DNA of 45,438 nt from Alphaproteobacteria bacterium (GTDB taxonomy: Bacteria; Pseudomonadota; Alphaproteobacteria; Rs-D84): contig JAKSTB010000001.1 of NCBI GenBank assembly GCA_024402815.1, positions 1-45,438 of the forward strand. The letters are read 5' to 3'. Positions 1 through 10,630 of this stretch are shown here, piece after piece. The notes below the pieces were generated by a model, which worked only from the letters and a program-made list of their open reading frames with translations, did no database searches and was not told the DNA's origin. The translations under genes were made by a program, and so were the position numbers. How positions within the stretch are numbered: position 1 is the first letter of the stretch; each line of letters opens with the position of its first letter.

Positions 1-1238
1 CGTTCAATAGACAACACAGATGTTAAATAATCAACATCACTGATTTGCTTTTTATTATTGTCATCACCATATTCGTTTGCCCAATCGACAACATTTTTAA
101 TCAAAACATCCACAGGTAACGTGGCAATATATTCTTTGGACCACCATTCCAATTTTTTCATATCAAACAAAGATCCAGATGCAGGTATTTTCTTTGGACG
201 CAATTCATAATCCCAGAAAGATTTAACCTGACCTTTTAATTTGGCCTCTTCATAACCCGGTGCCAAAATATTACCCAAATATTCAATCACAGCACCCGTT
301 GGCCACCCCTGTTCCAAGAAAAACGCAACATTATTTTCAGGGTCTTTACGTTTTGACATCTTTCTTTGTTTGCCGGTTTCTTCATCAATTTTATCCAATG
401 TCGCGGTATGAATATAATTTGGTAATTGCCATCCCATCATACGAAACATTTGAATATGCAATGCAACAGTTCCAAAATATTCTTCACCACGAACTACGTG
501 GGTAATGCGCATAAAATGATCATCAACCAAATGCGCGAAATGGTATGTCGGCAATCTGTCCGTAGATTTAATTAAAACTATGTCTTCATTATTTTCAGGC
601 ACAGATATAGACCCACGAACAAAATCTTTGAAATAAATTCTGTTTTCAGGATTACCCATAGAATACAGACGAATCGTTGGGGTTTCACCATTATCCAAAT
701 GTTTGATAATATCTTCTTCGCTTATATCTCTGTCACGTGCAAATTCACCATAAATCCCTGTCGCCATACCCGCAGCACTTTGCTTTTCACGAATAGAATC
801 CATTTCTTCTTGACTTAAAAAGCAAGGATATGCCAAACCGCGTTCCAATAAATACGCAACAACAGAATGGTAAATATCTTTTCTTTGTGATTGATAGTAC
901 GGACCATAATCGGACAAACCATTATCATTTCTTATTCCAAACTTTGCCAAAGAATTTATAACGATATCGACAGCTTCTTTGATTTCGCGTTTTGTATCTG
1001 TATCTTCTATGCGTAACAAAAACACACCATTTGATTGGTTTGCCAATTTATAATCAATCAATGCACTGTATAAATTTCCCAAATGCATATAACCCGTTGG
1101 ACTTGGGGCAAATCTGGTTACCAATGTCCCATCTGGTAATTGGCGTGGTGGAAATTTACTTTCCAATTCATCCAAAGTATATTTTGGTGCCCCACCCAAT
1201 ACACGTGCTATTAAATCTTTTGATAATCCATTACGCAT
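1..1238 (-). CDS. gltX: glutamate--tRNA ligase (3' end runs off the window edge)
   Basis: Absent from the ORF track because it has no stop inside the window. My reverse-strand translation from the ATG at 1238 gives MRNGLSKDLIARVLGGAPKYTLDELESKFPPRQLPDGTLVTRFAPSPTGYMHLGNLYSALIDYKLANQSNGVFLLRIEDTDTKRE... This carries the class I HIGH signature (PSPTGYMHLGN) and the LRIEDTD motif typical of GluRS. Confidence 0.9.
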   Translation of the reverse strand, partial: MRNGLSKDLIARVLGGAPKYTLDELESKFPPRQLPDGTLVTRFAPSPTGYMHLGNLYSALIDYKLANQSNGVFLLRIEDTDTKREIKEAVDIVINSLAKFGIRNDNGLSDYGPYYQSQRKDIYHSVVAYLLERGLAYPCFLSQEEMDSIREKQSAAGMATGIYGEFARDRDISEEDIIKHLDNGETPTIRLYSMGNPENRIYFKDFVRGSISVPENNEDIVLIKSTDRLPTYHFAHLVDDHFMRITHVVRGEEYFGTVALHIQMFRMMGWQLPNYIHTATLDKIDEETGKQRKMSKRKDPENNVAFFLEQGWPTGAVIEYLGNILAPGYEEAKLKGQVKSFWDYELRPKKIPASGSLFDMKKLEWWSKEYIATLPVDVLIKNVVDWANEYGDDNNKKQISDVDYLTSVLSIE

Positions 1239-1286
1239 TTTTATTTCACCCTTGTTTTTATAATGAACTGATTTTATACTAATTAT

Positions 1287-1961
1287 ATGGAAAAACAAGA
1301 ATTAAAACATTTTGAACAAAATGAATTGCGAACCTTTGGTCGCAGACACGGGAAAAAATTATCCATGCGTAAAACGTGGCTGATGGATAATTTATTACCA
1401 AAATTAGCACCAAAAGCTGACGAATACGGCAAAAATCCAATGATTTTAGAGATTGGATTTGGTAACGGCGAACACCTGCGAGAATTGGCAATAAACAATT
1501 CAAATTCCATAGTAATCGGGGCAGAACCCTTTGCAAATGGGGTCGCAGCATTATTATCCGCCATTACAACCGAATCGGATAATACCTTGATACCCGAATA
1601 CAAAAACATTCGTATTTTTCCAGACGATGTGCGTTTATTATTAAAAAACGATGGTTTTAAAAATGTAAAATTTGCACAAATCTGGGTATTACACCCTGAT
1701 CCTTGGCCAAAGGCAAAACACGAAAAAAGACGTTTGTTGAATCATGACTTTTTGAATTTATTGTCATCTAAATTATACAGGGATGGGAAAATCATAATTG
1801 GGACAGATCATTGGGAATATTATGATTGGATTGTTGAACAATTAAAACAGACAAATTTACAAATAAAATCTACATCTTTGGATATCATAAAAACCAGATA
1901 CCAAATAAAAAACAAGGCCGGCACAACAGAACCTAAATATTTGATTTTAGACAATATTTAA
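1287..1961 (+). CDS. trmB: tRNA (guanine-N7)-methyltransferase
   Basis: 224 aa. Has the SAM-binding EIGFGNGEHL motif and the HPDPWPKAKHEKRR motif characteristic of TrmB. Confidence 0.9.
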   Translation: MEKQELKHFEQNELRTFGRRHGKKLSMRKTWLMDNLLPKLAPKADEYGKNPMILEIGFGNGEHLRELAINNSNSIVIGAEPFANGVAALLSAITTESDNTLIPEYKNIRIFPDDVRLLLKNDGFKNVKFAQIWVLHPDPWPKAKHEKRRLLNHDFLNLLSSKLYRDGKIIIGTDHWEYYDWIVEQLKQTNLQIKSTSLDIIKTRYQIKNKAGTTEPKYLILDNI

Positions 1962-2650
1962 GATTCTATAAAAACATGTATTTTGTCGACCAATTCTGGC
2001 TTTTCTGTCTCTGCTAATCTTATAACCTGGTCTATGTGATAAAAATCATTTTTCAAAATTAAATGCAAATCGCCGATAAAATCCCAATTTTTCAACATAG
2101 TAAAAATTCGGCCTATGAATTTAGAATTTTTACCTGAATTATCTTCGCTGGAATAAATACCAAAGGCGGTGGCCCTGATTTCGCGCAATTTTTTAAATAT
2201 CAAATTCCAATCAGATATTTCTATTTTATCTATATCCATAATTATGCTTAATTCATGCCAAAAGAACAATCCGTCCCTTATCACAGACATAGTATTTATA
2301 AATTTTTCAAAATTATTCATGTCCAAAAATATTTGAACCCCGTGTGCGCCCTGCTTTTGAACATCTGATATATTCTTGGATATTTCGGAAAAAGCATTTT
2401 CAAAAGATTGCCCGATTGTTGAAAAATTATACCGCGTCAATATTTTTACATCTGTCTTTTCAAGGCACGCCCACAAAAAAGAAACCGTTTCAGGTGGCAC
2501 AGAAACCACAGGTATTTTCTTTTCCAAAATCAAATTTGCAATTCCCGCCATATCAGTCGTATCTTGGACAGCATTACACCACAGGGCAATTCTTTGATCG
2601 TTTTCAAAAAAAATTTCATTTGGTTCAATCATTTGATTCCAGTTTATCAT
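1958..2650 (-). CDS. hypothetical protein (no confident family)
   Basis: Long ORF. The track start at 2695 is a GTG that overlaps the divergent gene; I prefer the ATG at 2650 (MINWNQMIEPNE...). Its stop overlaps the trmB stop (TTAA at 1958-1961). It resembles the alternating beta/alpha pattern of DeoC-type aldolases only weakly (PVVSVPPETVSFLWACLEKTDVKILTRYNF), and no catalytic Lys is recognisable. Confidence 0.55.
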   Translation of the reverse strand: MINWNQMIEPNEIFFENDQRIALWCNAVQDTTDMAGIANLILEKKIPVVSVPPETVSFLWACLEKTDVKILTRYNFSTIGQSFENAFSEISKNISDVQKQGAHGVQIFLDMNNFEKFINTMSVIRDGLFFWHELSIIMDIDKIEISDWNLIFKKLREIRATAFGIYSSEDNSGKNSKFIGRIFTMLKNWDFIGDLHLILKNDFYHIDQVIRLAETEKPELVDKIHVFIES

Positions 2651-2674
2651 AAAATATGATACAATTAAACCGAA

Positions 2675-3607
2675 ATGAGAAAATTTTTTGAACACCTTTT
2701 GTTATCTATATTGTTGATCATGTCCGTTGTGTTGGGAATGACCTTTTGGTTGAACACAAAATTTGGGTTTAACCTGCTGTCTGCAAAGCACTGGCAAGAA
2801 TTGGCTTCGCTTCAGGCCGCCCACACACCGATTGATAAAACTTTCTATATATCTTTGGGTGTTGGCGTATTTATATTGATATTCGGGTTGTATTTAATAT
2901 TCCGCCCACGTTTCAGAAAATTACCAAAACCTGTGATTTCTCAACAACCAATTCCACAACAACCCGTAGTTGTACAAAAACAACCCGAACCCAAACAGGT
3001 TCAACAAACCCAACCTGTGCAAAACACGCAACCTGAACCTCAACCCCAGGAACAAGATGTACCTGTGTCTGCCCTGATGAACAGACCACCAAAATTAAAT
3101 CTGCCAAAAAACATGGAGGCTTTGGCCCAAAATAATTATATGAAACAACAAAATTCTGTATCAGACAATAATGTTTCCCAACAAAATACAACTATATACG
3201 ACCAAGAATTACGCGATATATTTGAACAAAACAGTTATGTGGTTAAACCTAATTTGACGATCTCAGGATTAAAAACGAATTTATTTGCGATTGGTAATCA
3301 CGAAGTTTTGTGGATGGGTGCGGTTGATTGTGATATGAATAAACTGAAAGCCTCAATCGGTAAATTAAGGGATTTGTTTGAAGAAACACTGGAAGATATT
3401 CCAATCAATATATTTGCATTCATATTGGATACAAAGAACGTCTATACCCCCAGCGATGACATAATGGTATTCCATTCAATTGAAGAAATATCTGAATTTA
3501 TCTCTAATAACCCGGCTGATAACATAGACGAAGACGAAAAAGAAAATTTTGATGCATATTCAGATTATATTGATAATATAATATCTATGGCACCGCATCT
3601 TATGTAG
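2675..3607 (+). CDS. hypothetical membrane protein with P/Q-rich linker
   Basis: 310 aa. Two N-terminal hydrophobic helices (LLLSILLIMSVVLGMTFWL, FYISLGVGVFILIFGLYLIF), then a low-complexity tract (QQPIPQQPVVVQKQPEPKQVQQTQPVQNTQPEPQPQEQ), a roughly 170-aa globular C-terminal part and an acidic tail (DNIDEDEKENFDAYSDYID). Confidence 0.6.
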   Translation: MRKFFEHLLLSILLIMSVVLGMTFWLNTKFGFNLLSAKHWQELASLQAAHTPIDKTFYISLGVGVFILIFGLYLIFRPRFRKLPKPVISQQPIPQQPVVVQKQPEPKQVQQTQPVQNTQPEPQPQEQDVPVSALMNRPPKLNLPKNMEALAQNNYMKQQNSVSDNNVSQQNTTIYDQELRDIFEQNSYVVKPNLTISGLKTNLFAIGNHEVLWMGAVDCDMNKLKASIGKLRDLFEETLEDIPINIFAFILDTKNVYTPSDDIMVFHSIEEISEFISNNPADNIDEDEKENFDAYSDYIDNIISMAPHLM

Positions 3608-3636
3608 TAATGTAACGTAACAAAGGGATAACACAA

Positions 3637-4143
3637 ATGCAATTCAACCAAGATTCTGCAATGGCGAGATTAAGTTCTCTTGGTATGGATGATATGCCTG
3701 TTATGGAATACACACCCAAACGTTCTTGTGTGGACAAAGATTGGTTTAAAACCTATTCCATGTTGCGTCATGAATTTATGTCATCATTAACAGATTCTTT
3801 TGAAGAAATCGCTTTTATGAATTTATCCCAAGATGAATTTATGAATTTAATTATGGGCAAACAAATGCCAGAAAACACATCTATCAGATTCAGGATTCCT
3901 TTAACCTTGGGTGGCGAATTAAGCGTTGATAATATGTTTATGTGTTTGACTTTTCCACACAGTCAAAACTTGGACAGATTTATAATAGAACAAAGTGATG
4001 CAACAAAACTGTTTTTACCAAACCCAGAAAAAAAGATTTATGTAACAACTCATTTGGCTGGTGGTGGTGATGGCGGTAACGCTACATCCGACAGATTAAG
4101 TGTTTCCGCTATGAATTTTGCTGGTGGCAGAGGAAACGAATAA
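3637..4143 (+). CDS. hypothetical protein with possible degenerate HNH-like core
   Basis: 168 aa, with AAGGGA upstream of the ATG. The segment IRFRIPLTLGGELSVDNMFMCLTFPH resembles the HNH pattern HH-x-x-P-x-x-x-GG-x5-N-x3-C-x4-H, but F-R replaces the His-His dyad. The C-terminus is Gly-rich (GGGDGGNATSDRLSVSAMNFAGGRGNE). Confidence 0.5.
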   Translation: MQFNQDSAMARLSSLGMDDMPVMEYTPKRSCVDKDWFKTYSMLRHEFMSSLTDSFEEIAFMNLSQDEFMNLIMGKQMPENTSIRFRIPLTLGGELSVDNMFMCLTFPHSQNLDRFIIEQSDATKLFLPNPEKKIYVTTHLAGGGDGGNATSDRLSVSAMNFAGGRGNE

Positions 4144-4144
4144 C

Positions 4145-4579
4145 ATGACGAAACAAGAATTTTTATCTTTTATGAAATCACGTGGTGCAACATTTACACC
4201 ACCTGCAACGCAGACCGAAATTACTTTGGCATCGGCAAATTTACAGGGCATACGCGCTGCAATGTTGCCTACGTTTTTGGTTGATTTATATAATTCTTGT
4301 TCTGGAATTATATTGGGATCTGCATATATTTTTGGACCAAAACAAATTGAACGTGATATAAAATATCATGTTCCATCTATATTGGATATAAACAAAGATG
4401 TATCTGGAAATAAAAATTTATTCGGCAAAACCGTATTCGGCCGTAATGATTTATTTTGGTTTGCAGTTGATGCATTGGGTAATTGCGTTATGTTGGATAA
4501 TTTAACTTTGTCCGTGATGCGCAAATATGATGATCCATATCGCGCAATGATAGATTGTTTGGTCGTTGGGAAAATTTAA
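4145..4579 (+). CDS. SMI1/KNR4 (SUKH)-like protein, putative immunity protein
   Basis: The ATG at 4145 lies 1 nt after the upstream stop; the track start at 4118 would overlap. Two SUKH-1-like segments are present: AAMLPTFLVDLYNSCSGIILGSAYIFG and FGRNDLFWFAVDALGNCVMLD. Size is about 144 aa. Assigned by eye only. Confidence 0.5.
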   Translation: MTKQEFLSFMKSRGATFTPPATQTEITLASANLQGIRAAMLPTFLVDLYNSCSGIILGSAYIFGPKQIERDIKYHVPSILDINKDVSGNKNLFGKTVFGRNDLFWFAVDALGNCVMLDNLTLSVMRKYDDPYRAMIDCLVVGKI

Positions 4580-4582
4580 TTT

Positions 4583-4795
4583 ATGCATAAAATATCTGTA
4601 TCTTTGTCGGGACATCAAACCAGTATTTCACTGGAACAGGAATTTTTTGATTGCCTGCAAAATATTGCAAAGGAACAAAATGTTTCGATTGCATCTATTA
4701 TAAAATCAATTGATGACACCAGATCCCCAGATACTAATCTTTCTTCTGAAATACGGATATGGATATTGAAGCAATTATTGAAAAAGCTAAAATAA
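4583..4795 (+). CDS. ribbon-helix-helix domain protein (RHH_4-like)
   Basis: 70 aa. The pattern SVSLSGHQTSISLEQEFFDCLQNIAKEQNVSIASIIKSIDDTR...NLSSEIRIWIL matches the alphaproteobacterial RHH_4 pattern (GH-TS-sLE..F...L..iA......l..li..iD..R...NLSSaiRvfvL). Confidence 0.75.
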   Translation: MHKISVSLSGHQTSISLEQEFFDCLQNIAKEQNVSIASIIKSIDDTRSPDTNLSSEIRIWILKQLLKKLK

Positions 4796-6749
4796 TCATC
4801 ATCCATAAATTCCGCCCTAATCTTCTATACAGCGCTTCATGCGCACCCCACACAAACCCATCCAAAGAACCATTTTGTCCAACCGGCATCCATGATTCGA
4901 CCTTTCCATCACTGGCGACAAAAGCGCTGATTCCCGAATAATTCGCACGGATAACAGGAACCCCAGATTCAATCGCATAACGTTTCACCATATCCAGATG
5001 CTGAAATACCCCCGGTGTTAAACCAAACCAAGTATCATTTGTAATATTGATAATTGCATTTGGTGTAATACGATTTGGAATCAAAGAATCTGAAAATATA
5101 ATTTCATAACAAATCGCGGGTGCAAAAACAAAATCACCACGTTGTGTATTTATAACTATCAGTTCTGGACCATTGCCCGCCTCTAATTGTCCAGGTGTTG
5201 GAATTATATCACCAAATGGGCGATATTCACCGAACGGAACTAAATGAGATTTGCTGTATAAATTATCAATCACACCAGATTTGTTTGCCACAACCATAGA
5301 GTTATACATTTTGCCATCTGCATAATGATTCACACCCATAACCACATTTGTATTTAATATGTGTGACAATGGGAATTTATCATCTACAACCACATATGGA
5401 TAAGTTGTTTCTGGATAAACAATAATATCAGGTTTGTTTGTTTTGTCGGCGGTTGCCCAAACAAATAAATCGCGAACCTTTTGGTCGGCCTGTTGTTGTG
5501 CCTCTGCCCTTGTCTTTGGCATTTTGTACACGGCAGATTCAGCGGGTTGCACAATTCTAATCAAAGGCAAATTATCCATATTTACATTATCAATTTTTTT
5601 CATATTGTGATATCCATAAACACATCCAACCACGAACAAAGAAACAAACATTAAAAATATAACCCAACAAGATTTGCATTTTTTGTTTTTCAAAATTTCA
5701 ACCAAAGAAGCAACCAACCCAATGATAACAAAAGTCAATCCCAATGCACCCCACATCGCCATAGAATTAGCGACCATTGGAAAATGCATAGTTATATTTG
5801 ATACTGGATTCCATGGAAAACCTGTGAAAATCCATTCCCGTAACCATAAAACAAACATCCAAGTGGCAGTAAACAAAATAGCCCTGGGTGCCGGTTTGCG
5901 CTTTACATATCTAATAACCGCAAAAGGCAGAGACAAAATAATTCCGCAAATCAAACCGATTCCCAATAATCCTGGTATTGTCCAAATTGCAAATTGACGC
6001 GCCAGTTCCGGAACAACATAAATAGAATTCAAAACCCACCAAAACATAAACATCCCATAAAACGCACCGAAAGGAAATGTTATCAACCAAGATTTCATAA
6101 AACTGACATGCTTTGTTTGTTTGATTGTTAAATAATATGCACCGCCCACACCTAACGTAAACAACATCCATAAATAAAATGGTGCGAAACCAAAGGAAGC
6201 AATTCCGCCGAATACAGCATATAACACATATTGCCAAAATCCATTTTCACGTATTTTTATATTTTTTAATTTTGTTATAAATTTACCGGGGCAACAAGAT
6301 TCATCACAGCAAACAATATCTTCATCTGCATAAGGATTCTTATATCCCAATTTTTTTAATATTTTGATTTCTTTAGATTCCATAATCTTGGCTTCTTGAT
6401 CTGTTAAATGATCAAAACCCTGCAAATGTAAAATTCCATGAACAATCATATGCGCAGTATGTTCCGAGACAGATATGTTTTCTGCATCCGCTTCTTTTTT
6501 CACAGTATCTAATGATATAAAAATATCACCCAATAAAACATCATCACCCAATTCAAAAGATAACACATTTGTAGGTTTATCAAAACCGCGATATTCCCTG
6601 TTTAATTTACGAATTGTTTTATCATCAACCAATGTAATTGAAACTTCGGCATCTTTGTGTTCGGCAGAAACCGCCGCATTGGCGATTTTTTCAAAATCTA
6701 TTTTATATTTTTTCCAATTTTTATTTTCGATATTTACATATACTTTCAT
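4734..6749 (-). CDS. fusion protein: endoribonuclease YbeY (N-terminal) + apolipoprotein N-acyltransferase Lnt (C-terminal)
   Basis: One uninterrupted frame. The N-terminal ~150 aa carry the YbeY metal motif HMIVHGILHLQGFDH and end in the typical LGYKNPY. A linker ADEDIVCCDESCCPGKFITKLKNIKIRENG follows. The Lnt part has TM helices and CN-hydrolase triad contexts (VYPETTYP, SKSHLVPFGEY, APAICYEIIF). I chose the start at 6749 (MKVYVNIE...) because the track start at 6860 overlaps the mucR-like gene. Confidence 0.85.
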   Translation of the reverse strand: MKVYVNIENKNWKKYKIDFEKIANAAVSAEHKDAEVSITLVDDKTIRKLNREYRGFDKPTNVLSFELGDDVLLGDIFISLDTVKKEADAENISVSEHTAHMIVHGILHLQGFDHLTDQEAKIMESKEIKILKKLGYKNPYADEDIVCCDESCCPGKFITKLKNIKIRENGFWQYVLYAVFGGIASFGFAPFYLWMLFTLGVGGAYYLTIKQTKHVSFMKSWLITFPFGAFYGMFMFWWVLNSIYVVPELARQFAIWTIPGLLGIGLICGIILSLPFAVIRYVKRKPAPRAILFTATWMFVLWLREWIFTGFPWNPVSNITMHFPMVANSMAMWGALGLTFVIIGLVASLVEILKNKKCKSCWVIFLMFVSLFVVGCVYGYHNMKKIDNVNMDNLPLIRIVQPAESAVYKMPKTRAEAQQQADQKVRDLFVWATADKTNKPDIIVYPETTYPYVVVDDKFPLSHILNTNVVMGVNHYADGKMYNSMVVANKSGVIDNLYSKSHLVPFGEYRPFGDIIPTPGQLEAGNGPELIVINTQRGDFVFAPAICYEIIFSDSLIPNRITPNAIINITNDTWFGLTPGVFQHLDMVKRYAIESGVPVIRANYSGISAFVASDGKVESWMPVGQNGSLDGFVWGAHEALYRRLGRNLWMMIILAFSIIASISISVFQKKD

Positions 6750-6759
6750 AATACGCACC

Positions 6760-7116
6760 CTATTTTTTACCGAACCCATGTTTCTTTGCAATCTTGGAAC
6801 GTTTGTTTGCATATTTTGATGCAACGAAAGGATAATCCAAAGGCAAACCCCATTTTTCACAATATTGTTGCGGGGTTAAATTAAACTTTCTTTTGATATA
6901 CCGCTTTAACATGACGTGCCATGTACCGTCTTCAAAACATTGAATTGCATCATCAGTTACAGAATCTGCGATTTGTTCAGGGGTCAAAGAAATGCCACGC
7001 AATATCTCAGTTGCCTGTTTTACGGCATCTTTCATAGATAATTTTGGGTTTGCACCTATGGCTGCAGCCGCCAAAGTTGCCACCGCCAACGTAAATTCAG
7101 AATCTTTATTTACCAA
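6760..7116 (-). CDS. Ros/MucR family transcriptional regulator (zinc ligands largely substituted)
   Basis: 118 aa. The C-terminal segment LKRYIKRKFNLTPQQYCEKWGLPLDYPFVASKYANKRSKIAKKHGFG matches the Ros/MucR signature (LKRHL...hGLTPeeYR.KWGLP.DYPMVAP.YA..RS.LAK..GLG). TTG start preceded by AAGGA 7 nt upstream. Confidence 0.8.
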   Translation of the reverse strand: MVNKDSEFTLAVATLAAAAIGANPKLSMKDAVKQATEILRGISLTPEQIADSVTDDAIQCFEDGTWHVMLKRYIKRKFNLTPQQYCEKWGLPLDYPFVASKYANKRSKIAKKHGFGKK

Positions 7117-8450: not shown

Positions 8451-9293
8451 TTAAAATAATATTCTGATATTGAACCCGACCTGTAAATCATGGCTGTCAA
8501 ATTCATAATCTAATTTTCCAATATATTGTGTGTTACCAAATTGACGCAACAGTTTGAAATTAACCCATTCTTGATTTAATAATAAATGTGGATTTGTTGA
8601 TTTGCGAATATCAAAGCCCAATCCCATACGCCATTTATATTGGAATCGTAAATAAGCTTCCGGTATAAAATCTATATAGGATAAACCGCGATTATCATCA
8701 AAAACCCAAGTAGATTTCACAGTACCCGCCAATGTTATTCCGTTATATTGACGACCAAAACGCAAACCGGCAAAATAGGAACTATCTGCATATTCAGGTG
8801 TTCTGATATGAGAACCGCCCCACAGTTTCAACCCGAACAAAGCATCAGCAATTATATGATTTTTGCCATCGCTATGATTCATACGATATGTTCCGCCAAA
8901 TTCAGTTGCAGAAAAACCATTTTCATGATCGAGTGAAAAATCAATTTGGTAATGCATATTGGCATGAAAAACAAAATTGTTATTTATGCCATAACCCCAA
9001 TATTCACCTATGCGTAATTTAGCATCTAAAAATGAAACATAAGTATCGGACAGAAAACTGTTATCACCGACCAAGAACAAAGGATCGGATGTATCATTTG
9101 ATAAACTGTTTTTTGCAACGGGTTGTGCAACATCGGCATCAAAGCTGTCAACAACAGCAACCTGTTGTGGTTGTTGGGTTTGCGGTGCAACGAAAGGTTC
9201 TTCTTCGACAGATGTATCAGACAAAACAACCACTTCTGCCATGGCATTAACAGACACCAACGCGCCAATCAAAAATAACACAAAACGTTTCAT
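8451..9293 (-). CDS. putative outer-membrane beta-barrel protein
   Basis: Signal peptide MKRFVLFLIGALVSVNAMA/E, an acidic Q/P-rich N-terminal tract, alternating amphipathic segments and a C-terminal aromatic residue (...FNIRILF). Confidence 0.6.
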   Translation of the reverse strand: MKRFVLFLIGALVSVNAMAEVVVLSDTSVEEEPFVAPQTQQPQQVAVVDSFDADVAQPVAKNSLSNDTSDPLFLVGDNSFLSDTYVSFLDAKLRIGEYWGYGINNNFVFHANMHYQIDFSLDHENGFSATEFGGTYRMNHSDGKNHIIADALFGLKLWGGSHIRTPEYADSSYFAGLRFGRQYNGITLAGTVKSTWVFDDNRGLSYIDFIPEAYLRFQYKWRMGLGFDIRKSTNPHLLLNQEWVNFKLLRQFGNTQYIGKLDYEFDSHDLQVGFNIRILF

Positions 9294-9322: not shown

Positions 9323-10630
9323 TTAGAAATACAATATTGCTTGAATACCCAATTTATATTCATTGTAATTTTTGATTTTGTAATCACCAATGGTATATAT
9401 ATTATTAGATGTTATACCACAAGTACTCAAAAGGGCTTGTGTATCTGAACTATATGGGGCAACATCATTGTTATAATATTTTCTGACCTTACCATCTGCG
9501 GAATCATACACAACTGCTGATCCATATAAATTCAATGCGAACATATCACCTGGTTGGTAACCAAATGCACCCTTCAATGTCAATTGATTGTGCCAATCAT
9601 AATTACCGAACAATACTTCGCCGTTCAATGTGAAATATTTATTTAACACACCGAATACCCCAACACCACCTTCGATAAATGTGGCGGAATCAACATCTGT
9701 GTTATAAGACATCATCAACCAATCGCCGGTTTTATCTTGGATGAACGCACCATATGCATTACCAGATGTCAAATCGATATAGGATACACGCCCCAATCCA
9801 TACAATGTTGTTCTGTCAATTTTATATCCAAATTTCAAATCGGCCATAAATGTGTTGGCTGTATCGCGTTGATTTTGATAATATGCCGCCAACATACCGA
9901 TATAATCATTCGTATCAACAAAACGATATTGCAGACCAAAACCAAATGTATTAAAACCGGAATCAGACGTACTGGCATCTGGTTCGCCTGTTGTCCAATC
10001 GGTCAATTTAACCTTAGTGGAATCATATTGTGCCATTGCCAAAATTGCCACGGAATCAGATATACCAAAACTGAAATCTTCTTTTACCAAGAATTGATTT
10101 GTTTTGATTTTGGCACCACCTGAACTGACCCCATATACAAAAGGTGTATCCAAACTATATGTTGCACTACTTGGGTCAATATCCCACACCGTACCGTTCA
10201 ATAAATCAAATTTGAAACTGTTTTGAGCAAATGAAATATCCGTCACAGAACCAAATTTACCCTTTAATGGTTGAAAGAATGGATGTGCCAAGAAATATTT
10301 ACGCATCTGGGATGTTGTTTTTTTCTTGGTATATGTAGATTCTGATTTTTTATAAGATCTGGTTTCTCCACCAGCATAACCAGAATCCCCTTTCATACCA
10401 GATGATTTTTTAACAGTTCTGGTTGTTGTCTTGGTGTTTTTACCAGCATTGGCACGACCTGCGCCTTGGTTATAATAAAAATTATTTGTTATTGTGTTGC
10501 CACGACCATCAGTTTTTGTAACAGTGCTGACGCGTCTGTATGTACTTGTTGTTGTGCCTGTTTCTTCTGCATTTACAGCCCCAGACAAAGCAACCATTAA
10601 ACTAACCAATGCAACCACACATTTTTTCAT
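9323..10630 (-). CDS. putative outer-membrane beta-barrel protein
   Basis: Signal peptide MKKCVVALVSLMVALSGAVNA/EE, a ~90-aa T/K/S/G-rich basic tract, then a beta-strand-like alternating pattern ending ...GIQAILYF. GGAG lies upstream of the ATG. Confidence 0.6.
   Translation of the reverse strand: MKKCVVALVSLMVALSGAVNAEETGTTTSTYRRVSTVTKTDGRGNTITNNFYYNQGAGRANAGKNTKTTTRTVKKSSGMKGDSGYAGGETRSYKKSESTYTKKKTTSQMRKYFLAHPFFQPLKGKFGSVTDISFAQNSFKFDLLNGTVWDIDPSSATYSLDTPFVYGVSSGGAKIKTNQFLVKEDFSFGISDSVAILAMAQYDSTKVKLTDWTTGEPDASTSDSGFNTFGFGLQYRFVDTNDYIGMLAAYYQNQRDTANTFMADLKFGYKIDRTTLYGLGRVSYIDLTSGNAYGAFIQDKTGDWLMMSYNTDVDSATFIEGGVGVFGVLNKYFTLNGEVLFGNYDWHNQLTLKGAFGYQPGDMFALNLYGSAVVYDSADGKVRKYYNNDVAPYSSDTQALLSTCGITSNNIYTIGDYKIKNYNEYKLGIQAILYF

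Follow-up and report, generated by a model that had tools for sequence, protein, structure and literature searches.

A stretch of 45,438 nucleotides (nt) from an Alphaproteobacteria bacterium of the order Rs-D84 (assembly GCA_024402815.1, contig JAKSTB010000001.1), referred to here as the window, carries five uncharacterised genes between trmB and a single open reading frame (ORF) that fuses YbeY to Lnt. The genes were named orfA, on the minus strand, and orfB, orfC, orfD and orfE, which run divergently from it on the plus strand. The question raised by this locus is whether it encodes an active toxin-immunity or defence system, as a first-pass annotation had proposed, or a stable part of the cell. 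The analyses favour, with moderate confidence and as one joint explanation, a vertically inherited, lineage-specific core operon of Rs-D84 and not a mobile conflict island. The cassette would be a domesticated accessory or adaptor module, associated at least ancestrally with a type IV coupling protein (T4CP) and autoregulated by orfE.

A five-gene arrangement fixed across Rs-D84

The plus-strand genes orfB (2675-3607; 310 amino acids, aa), orfC (3637-4143; 168 aa), orfD (4145-4579; 144 aa, inside the ORF 4118-4579) and orfE (4583-4795; 70 aa) are separated by 29, 1 and 3 nt, as previously described. The divergent orfA (1958-2632, minus strand; 224 aa) encodes a soluble, acidic protein without an assigned fold. 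The cassette is packed without spacer at either end. The stop codons of trmB (plus) and orfA (minus) share 4 nt (window 1958-1961), and the 3' ends of orfE (plus) and ybeY-lnt (minus) overlap convergently by 62 nt (window 4734-4795). An overlap of 62 or 65 nt is common to most of the closer related loci. The synonymous divergence (dS) of orfE is low, 0.61 versus about 1.1 in its neighbours, which is consistent with a dual coding constraint from the ybeY-lnt overlap.

Relatives of orfC were scanned in one genome per species and were found in 172 species-level genomes; these genes keep company far beyond the genome of the window. More than 500 full-length orfC homologues of near-uniform length (168 aa) showed one-to-one orthology. 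Record titles give 'Candidatus Enterousia' or unnamed Alphaproteobacteria, from rumen and gut. Genomes of the order Rs-D84 have sizes of 0.67-1.6 Mb, and code for neither a tricarboxylic acid cycle nor a respiratory chain (PMC12306168).

Synteny was analysed by tblastn of seven window proteins (the five of the cassette, TrmB and YbeY-Lnt) against 84 related loci. The 80 best of these are from Rs-D84 species genomes and cover the cassette with 7 kb on each side. The order trmB, orfA, orfB, orfC, orfD, orfE, ybeY-lnt was found nearly everywhere. Orthologues of all five ORFs occur in the same order in 78-84 of the 84 loci (orfA in 78, orfE in 84), and orfB-orfC-orfD-orfE are arranged identically in all 80 best loci. 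Almost all related loci show similarly tight gaps, of -8 to +31 nt, which supports the earlier assignment of the four genes to one operon. The identity to the window proteins is 55-77% for orfC, 43-71% for orfD and 52-84% for orfE; the flanking proteins show a similar range (trmB 55-81%, ybeY-lnt 46-78%). Both orfA and orfB are more divergent (28-55%). Besides its 78 syntenic orthologues, orfA has another in the distant locus L088.

Selection was estimated as the ratio of nonsynonymous to synonymous divergence (dN/dS) by the Nei-Gojobori method for about 40 moderately diverged pairs; as dS is near 1, the values are approximate. The ratios are 0.130 for orfA, 0.167 for orfB, 0.079 for orfC, 0.077 for orfD and 0.129 for orfE, and those of the flanks are 0.090 (trmB) and 0.122 (ybeY-lnt). 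All five ORFs are real genes in a fixed, ancient arrangement, and the cassette shows no mobile, patchy or fast-evolving behaviour of a conflict locus. Its vertical inheritance, universal presence and purifying selection indicate a housekeeping-like evolution. All five have been kept in genomes reduced to about 800-900 genes, so the operon is probably indispensable to these bacteria.

None of orfA, orfB, orfC and orfD has an above-threshold match in Pfam, NCBIfam, PADLOC or the PDB sequences, and their family profiles gave chance-level matches only against all PDB sequences. No match to a known housekeeping family was found for these four proteins. Scans of all five proteins against PADLOC and PHROGs detected nothing significant; one marginal PADLOC match was that of orfB to DruC (E 0.0038, 13.7 bits). 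Literature searches on RHH_4/PF13467, on SUKH with VirD4, and on NERD with coupling proteins gave nothing relevant. The first-pass annotation had considered this an undescribed module, and the gene set was indeed found undescribed in the literature, with no curated family for orfA-orfD. Four of the five proteins thus represent families without a curated model or a solved relative. What is new is the combination, the T4CP linkage and the domesticated state; the folds are of known kinds. For orfA, there was no Pfam or PDB sequence match, and a comparison of 35 orthologues with Pfam showed no consistent family. A DeoC-like barrel, suggested for orfA by the look of its sequence, was unsupported and was dropped.

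The operon proteins and the predicted promoter region

The orfB product is predicted to be an inner-membrane hairpin protein. It has two hydrophobic segments, at about aa 5-28 (TM1, about nt 2687-2758) and 56-77 (TM2, nt 2840-2905), which enclose a conserved FWLNTxFGFNxxSxxHW loop (nt 2759-2839). A linker rich in proline and glutamine follows (nt 2918-3085; aa 82-137, 48% P+Q), which runs into a conserved RPPxLNLP motif (nt 3083-3106). The acidic α/β C-terminal domain (nt 3188-3604) ends in 40 residues with 11 D/E versus 1 K/R. The two transmembrane segments, the P/Q-rich spacer and the acidic tail had all been recognised correctly at first pass. K/R residues flank the membrane spans on the N-terminal and post-TM2 sides; by the positive-inside rule, the C-terminal domain is probably cytoplasmic.

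This domain appears weakly NERD-like. Two relatives match NERD (PF08378) below the cutoff: the orfB homologue beside a T4CP gene (B', see below) of locus L092, with E 0.0011 (19.9 bits vs cutoff 22.1), and the orfB of L088, with E 0.016. Both matches span about 100 of the 111 profile positions. A 24-residue segment of the NERD-like domain is present in the B' proteins, and has been lost in most Rs-D84 orfB proteins, including that of the window. Other candidate assignments were rejected. Matches to IcmG/DotF (E 0.006), TolA, PepSY_TM and Zot-like proteins are confined to the P/Q linker or the membrane spans, and reflect low complexity. The possibility of a truncated T4CP membrane domain was given 0.9% probability by hhalign against a T4CP alignment.

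The orfC family is restricted. In an exhaustive profile search, 1.84 billion representatives yielded 72 clusters with E ≤ 0.001, and the few clusters with a named source are from uncultured Alphaproteobacteria or 'Rickettsiales' metagenome-assembled genomes (MAGs). In the wider family, it is the C-terminal domain that is conserved, with a variable N-terminus. The AlphaFold2 model of orfC has a predicted local distance difference test (pLDDT) score of 74.8, with strands at residues 81-85 and 100-104 and a helix at 105-117. These elements belong to a putative HNH-like β-β-α core (nt 3874-3993; aa 80-119), assigned at the motif level. Of the HNH-like core proposed earlier, the motif has held, and HNH domains head the fold lists; the fold matches are non-significant and the catalytic histidines are gone. 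In long-form orfC relatives, the pattern H..P...GG.....N....H...H is preserved. At the three histidine positions, the Rs-D84 proteins carry R84/F85, S109 and D113, and N99 is invariant. This motif comparison suggests that orfC might be HNH-derived and catalytically degenerate in this clade, its nuclease activity having presumably been lost.

The Gly-rich tail of orfC noted in the first annotation is present (GGGDGGNATSDRL...GRGNE; nt 4048-4140, aa 138-168), and is modelled as disordered. The tail motif G-GG-x(3-4)-DR-[SL] and the terminal GR are kept from Rs-D84 to the remotest T4CP-linked relatives, and look like a short linear binding or recognition motif. The orfC protein is acidic (isoelectric point, pI, 4.9) and orfD is basic (pI 8.5).

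The orfD gene always lies directly after orfC, including in distant lineages. Its AlphaFold2 model (pLDDT 92.1) was searched against the PDB with Foldseek, and the top four matches are the SUKH (SMI1/KNR4) proteins 2prv (YobK), 3d5p, 2icg and 2pag. The top SUKH structures aligned over the full length with probability 1.00 and template modelling scores of 0.59-0.76. At the sequence level, the matches are sub-threshold: the NCBIfam YrhA family was matched at 8.9e-7 (28.9 bits vs cutoff 55), 6 of 35 orthologues match SMI1_KNR4 (best E 0.006) and two match SUKH_6. The window orfD itself has no Pfam match, and no curated SUKH model scored above cutoff. A search of its profile against a 5.8-billion-protein set listed at least 120 matches, of 142-154 aa and 48-98% identical, without Pfam domains. 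Because the listed matches are all close, Pfam-less relatives of orfD, they provide no bridge to annotated SUKH proteins. The predicted structure confirms orfD as a SUKH protein at the fold level, in agreement with the first assignment. The SUKH fold is known for binding partner proteins (PMC3113570).

The smallest product, orfE, is a ribbon-helix-helix (RHH) DNA-binding protein. Its assignment to RHH_4 (PF13467) was upheld with E 8.4e-22 and 77.4 bits vs cutoff 25, covering positions 3-66 of the 67-position profile. The gene is present in all 84 related loci and in the distant loci L088 and L089.

A candidate operator is located between orfA and orfB. Alignment with 34 orthologues, most of which begin MIE or MID, makes the ATG at 2632 the likely start of orfA (MIEPNE...). 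It is improbable that translation begins at 2650 or 2695; the alternative ATG at 2650 is probably unused, and is disfavoured because it falls inside a conserved palindrome. With the start at 2632, the divergent intergenic region is 42 nt, and not the spacing of at most 24 nt that had been given before. This palindrome, TATCATA-AAA-TATGATA (2645-2661), is perfect. A predicted extended -10 element for orfB-orfE (TGaTACAAT, 2657-2665, plus strand) ends 9 nt before the orfB ATG, and a mirror element for orfA (TGaTAAACT, 2641-2649, minus strand) ends 8 nt before the ATG at 2632. Each palindrome arm is part of an extended -10 element. The earlier view that each promoter must lie inside the other gene was roughly right, with the correction that the predicted promoters overlap each other inside the palindrome.

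Of 78 related loci, 66 have the strict palindrome motif 12-14 nt before the orfB ATG, and one has it 61 nt before. In most of the remaining loci, it deviates by a single base. In 1.1 Mb of related loci, the motif was found only at this site. Its columns are invariant across 19 diverse species, the proteins of which are only about 55% identical, and the -10 motif and its spacing are conserved alongside. There is no Shine-Dalgarno sequence before orfB. Because a generic promoter scan scored at chance level for the divergent region as a whole, the promoter argument is drawn from conservation. The pattern would fit two back-to-back promoters with a shared operator and near-leaderless mRNAs. Since RHH proteins bind such repeats, and orfE and the palindrome co-occur in Rs-D84, orfE is the obvious candidate for its repressor, and presumably acts as the operator-binding factor. 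The palindrome is absent upstream of the orfB homologues in L088-L093. It was not found upstream of the checked B' (or C) genes in L086 and L091-L093, which have no orfE. A 17-bp operator-like palindrome together with an RHH protein would form a simple regulatory circuit, which is experimentally approachable.

Coupling proteins in sister lineages and the competing explanations

Loci of sister lineages were found via contigs with distant orfC relatives and contigs with the associated ATPase, and their flanking genes were tested with hidden Markov models (HMMs) built from Rs-D84 sequences only. In all seven T4CP-linked loci (L085 and L090-L095), which come from different 50%-identity clusters, a VirD4/TraG T4CP gene (PF02534, PF10412, PF12696) is followed by a long orfC homologue (C') and then by an orfD homologue (D; 143-154 aa). 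In six of them (L090-L095), the T4CP gene is directly preceded by a gene for the B' membrane protein (316-412 aa); in L085 the B side is not visible, as the contig begins within the T4CP gene. The gene order in the sister lineages is B'-VirD4/TraG-C'-D. The Rs-D84-only HMMs recognise these genes as homologues of orfB, orfC and orfD. Comparison of orfB with B' by hhalign gave 96.5% for the membrane part and, for the C-terminal domain, E 4e-4, and that of orfD with the distant D genes gave about 95%. The B' proteins share the two spans, the RPPxL linker motif and the NERD-like domain with orfB. An orfE gene was not called beside the D gene in any of the seven loci. The window operon is therefore this B-[T4CP]-C-D set minus the T4CP and plus the RHH gene. 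Outside Rs-D84, a T4CP is the only consistent functional neighbour of the family.

Further features of these lineages were observed. In L094, a TrbL/VirB6 gene lies about 6 kb away from the T4CP locus, just upstream of an array of tandem paralogues. Four tandem paralogues of about 350 aa are located upstream of the T4CP gene in L094 (5359-9824, 3475-5112), and two in L093 (3332-5655). The HMMs score as B' the two T4CP-proximal paralogues in L094 and both in L093. These tandem paralogues recall the duplicated type IV secretion system (T4SS) components of Rickettsiales. A 310-aa gene after D in L090 was considered as an orfB homologue and rejected (hhalign, 0.7% probability). A comparison of locus-tag prefixes showed no overlap between T4CP-bearing and cassette-bearing MAGs among the names listed. 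The intermediate lineages L088 and L089 have B-C-D-E without a T4CP. L088 also has orfA and ybeY-lnt, with an M23 peptidase neighbour, and the L089 cassette lies between accA/D and AsmA, with AsmA/MlaA as neighbours. In the L086 lineage, the orfC-orfD pair occurs alone, beside two giant pilin-like proteins. These proteins, of 582 and 704 aa (L086 1945-5818, minus strand), have type IV pilin-like N-termini (G|YTMMEM, Glu +5), and are encoded divergently to the C-D pair.

According to the favoured explanation, orfB, orfC and orfD would be local versions of the three-protein set that is encoded around the T4CP in sister lineages. They might be built from nuclease-toxin and immunity folds (NERD-like, HNH-like and SUKH), with the nuclease features decayed in this clade. 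The orfB protein would be anchored in the inner membrane, its acidic NERD-like domain facing the cytoplasm, and orfD would hold the degenerate HNH-like orfC with its disordered Gly-rich tail. Together, the three proteins may act as a membrane-associated accessory or adaptor complex, which would work with the coupling protein where one is present; its role would be structural or regulatory, not toxic. Because the palindrome at 2645-2661 overlaps two back-to-back extended -10 promoters, orfE binding there would repress both the orfB-orfE operon and orfA. The bracketing of a T4CP in sister lineages suggests that the proteins take part in the interactions of these probable symbionts or parasites with other cells.

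Several observations weigh against this explanation. A tblastn query with the L090 T4CP had no match in the window, nor in the 80 Rs-D84 loci, which extend 7 kb to either side of the cassette; a T4SS link in Rs-D84 itself is hypothetical. Genes adjacent to virD4 can encode secreted effectors, not machine parts. HNH domains top the Foldseek PDB and BFVD lists for orfC, but only at E 0.8-2. An hhalign comparison of the orfC family with the colicin E9 DNase aligned the expected motif with P 0.14. It is the motif alignment that carries the interpretation of orfC as a possible degenerate nuclease. The window orfB itself has no NERD match in Pfam, and the matches of its relatives are below the Pfam cutoff. 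In addition, L088 and L089 carry orfE without this palindrome.

A stronger version of the favoured explanation is tentative, and improbable in its entirety. It holds that orfB, orfC and orfD are subunits of a new substrate-receptor or adaptor complex of the T4CP in a radiation of uncultured Alphaproteobacteria with reduced genomes, domesticated from a nuclease toxin, a SUKH immunity protein and a NERD-type membrane nuclease, and that this complex is controlled by the RHH protein and possibly essential in Rs-D84. The Rs-D84 module may then use a T4CP encoded elsewhere, or none.

The main rival, which we consider unlikely, is an active interbacterial weapon, fixed by an antagonistic or parasitic way of life. 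The orfC protein would then be a T4SS-delivered nuclease effector, orfD its immunity protein, orfB a membrane helper and orfE a regulator. In its gene order, with a SUKH gene after an HNH-like motif, the cassette shows the classic toxin-immunity arrangement (PMC3113570). The long forms directly downstream of virD4 retain the H-N-H-H pattern, and the conserved orfC tail, with its terminal GR, might serve as a secretion signal. Effector genes are found beside virD4 in Bartonella and Xanthomonas. This explanation is more plausible for the long, histidine-bearing forms beside virD4 than for the version in the window. The parts do resemble those of conflict systems, as the first-pass interpretation held, and the weak NERD similarity of orfB brings in another nuclease-like fold, but an active toxin-immunity or defence locus is not supported. 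An active conflict locus is disfavoured because the cassette is at a fixed site in essentially every examined genome of the order, because orfC and orfD evolve under a dN/dS (0.079 and 0.077) near that of trmB (0.090), because the HNH-defining histidines are replaced in the clade, and because significant PADLOC matches are nil. A DNase and its immunity protein would be expected to be basic and acidic, respectively; here the charges are the opposite, which argues in the same direction. The one-to-one orthology, without domain swapping or immunity arrays, and the lack of a T4CP around the Rs-D84 cassettes likewise speak against a weapon. A conserved C-terminus with a variable N-terminus is the opposite of polymorphic toxins. 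The conflict-locus reading is probably wrong for this genome. Toxin- and immunity-type folds under housekeeping-like constraint also call for caution in naming nuclease-like and SUKH pairs as conflict systems from their domains alone.

A T4SS-independent housekeeping module, for example in envelope biogenesis, cell division or DNA handling, might have been recruited from the older T4CP-linked set. The retention of the cassette in genomes of about 0.7-1 Mb would fit this, as would an operon without a T4CP and with its catalytic residues lost, and neighbours that are envelope or RNA genes (ybeY-lnt; the M23 peptidase in L088; AsmA/MlaA in L089). It is nevertheless quite unlikely in view of the lack of similarity to any known housekeeping family, and of the T4CP being the family's one consistent functional neighbour outside Rs-D84.

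A chromosomally fixed toxin-antitoxin or addiction module, with the RHH protein as antitoxin and repressor and an upstream protein as toxin, is very unlikely. RHH proteins are common antitoxins and autorepressors, the operon is tight, and the palindromic operator overlaps the promoter; however, there are four genes instead of two with the RHH gene last, the cassette is universal and syntenic across the order and not patchy, no known toxin family is matched, and the T4CP-linked versions keep C and D without orfE. An anti-phage defence system composed of a membrane sensor, a nuclease effector and a regulator is scarcely credible, as the superficially similar parts list and the marginal DruC match are outweighed by the lack of significant PADLOC or PHROG matches, a window that is housekeeping throughout with no defence island, the absence of presence/absence variation under strongly purifying selection, and degenerate nuclease motifs.

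Surrounding genes and comparison with known systems

The cassette had been described as sitting among housekeeping genes with no tRNA or integrase nearby, and this description holds. No tRNA genes or Rfam matches are present in the whole window, and the sole integrase-family gene is a Xer-type recombinase 17 kb from the cassette. The remaining genes that were checked have housekeeping roles: ftsK, a PAP2 phosphatase, a C-terminal processing peptidase, secDF, mutL, greA, lptF/G, trxB, serS, typA and glycosyltransferases, besides the Xer-type gene. The fused ORF for YbeY (endoribonuclease) and Lnt (apolipoprotein N-acyltransferase) spans window 4734-6860 on the minus strand, with a probable start at 6746 (about 670-708 aa). 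The fusion also occurs in the Rs-D84 loci L001-L004, where the gene calls were seen, and in the distant L088. Between ybeY-lnt and rarA, a Ros/MucR-family zinc-finger regulator is encoded at 6760-7116 (minus strand); in some related loci a TPR protein takes its place (L001), and others lack the gene (L003). Two ORFs of 280 aa (8451-9293) and 435 aa (9323-10630), both on the minus strand, have no Pfam match. The signal-peptide-like N-terminus, Q/P-rich stretch and C-terminal Phe of the 280-aa ORF suggest an outer-membrane β-barrel protein. Window 1-1240 (minus strand) has no listed ORF, and its gene runs past the window edge; by synteny with L001-L004, this is the 3' part of gltX (glutamyl-tRNA synthetase).

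The HNH toxin-SUKH immunity pairs are among the closest known systems. An example is the Bacillus subtilis pair YobL-YobK, with YobK of structure 2PRV. The orfD model superposes on YobK and on three other SUKH structures. As in these pairs, orfC with its HNH-like motif is directly followed by the SUKH gene orfD, to which it is apparently translationally coupled. HNH-fold toxins with SUKH immunity proteins were described in polymorphic toxin systems by Zhang, Iyer and Aravind 2011 (PMC3113570). In contrast to them, the cassette has no N-terminal trafficking domain, toxin-domain polymorphism or immunity arrays; it is strictly vertical and core with a dN/dS of 0.08, its histidines are absent and its charge polarity is reversed. 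Polymorphic toxins have a variable C-terminus, patchy spread and fast evolution, whereas orfC has a uniform 168 aa and fixed synteny. A deeply divergent HNH DNase, Tox-REHH, is neutralised by unrelated immunity families (bioRxiv 10.64898/2026.09.22.753552). With no kinship claimed, it provides a precedent for an HNH site hidden from fold searches. Unlike orfC, Rehh is toxic and histidine-rich, and it belongs to the polymorphic toxins, as a domain joined to carriers such as PAAR/RHS and LXG.

The regulatory part of the cassette resembles the Arc/CopG/MetJ-class RHH autorepressors, in that orfE is an RHH_4 protein and the palindrome overlaps the promoter of its own operon. It differs from the usual autorepressors in that the orfE gene is last, and the candidate site would also control a divergent gene via the mirror -10 box. 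In comparison with type II toxin-antitoxin systems, the cassette has four genes with the RHH gene last, no toxin-family match, and is universal in the order. The N-terminal spans and C-terminal α/β domain of orfB are like those of NERD (PF08378) membrane proteins, but what sets the orfB family apart is its long P/Q linker and its RPPxL motif.

Systems with genes around virD4 offer two further comparisons. The Xanthomonas X-Tfe/X-Tfi effector-immunity pairs lie near virD4, and the Bartonella Bep effectors are encoded downstream of virD4. The sister loci are similar in that the long orfC homologue is directly downstream of virD4, has a conserved C-terminal region with a tail, and is followed by a small partner gene. 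They differ from X-Tfe and Bep, since Pfam detects no XVIPCD or BID domain, and the family is single-copy, slow-evolving and orthologous across the order. The second comparison is with the accessory and adaptor subunits of T4CPs, as in Legionella, where DotL is joined by DotM, DotN, IcmS/IcmW and LvgA. A T4CP neighbourhood was found in the sister lineages and not in the window and the 80 Rs-D84 loci (±7 kb); the window operon thus differs from the DotL complexes, and its proteins have no sequence or fold similarity to DotM, DotN or IcmSW. Like the DotL complexes, the sister loci encode a membrane-anchored B' protein with a cytoplasmic domain and the small soluble proteins C' and D around a T4CP. 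By analogy, this is the arrangement that would be expected for subunits of one complex. If orfB, orfC and orfD do form the domesticated adaptor complex considered above, they would represent a T4SS accessory class of a new type, and a clear example of core machinery that arose from a conflict module.

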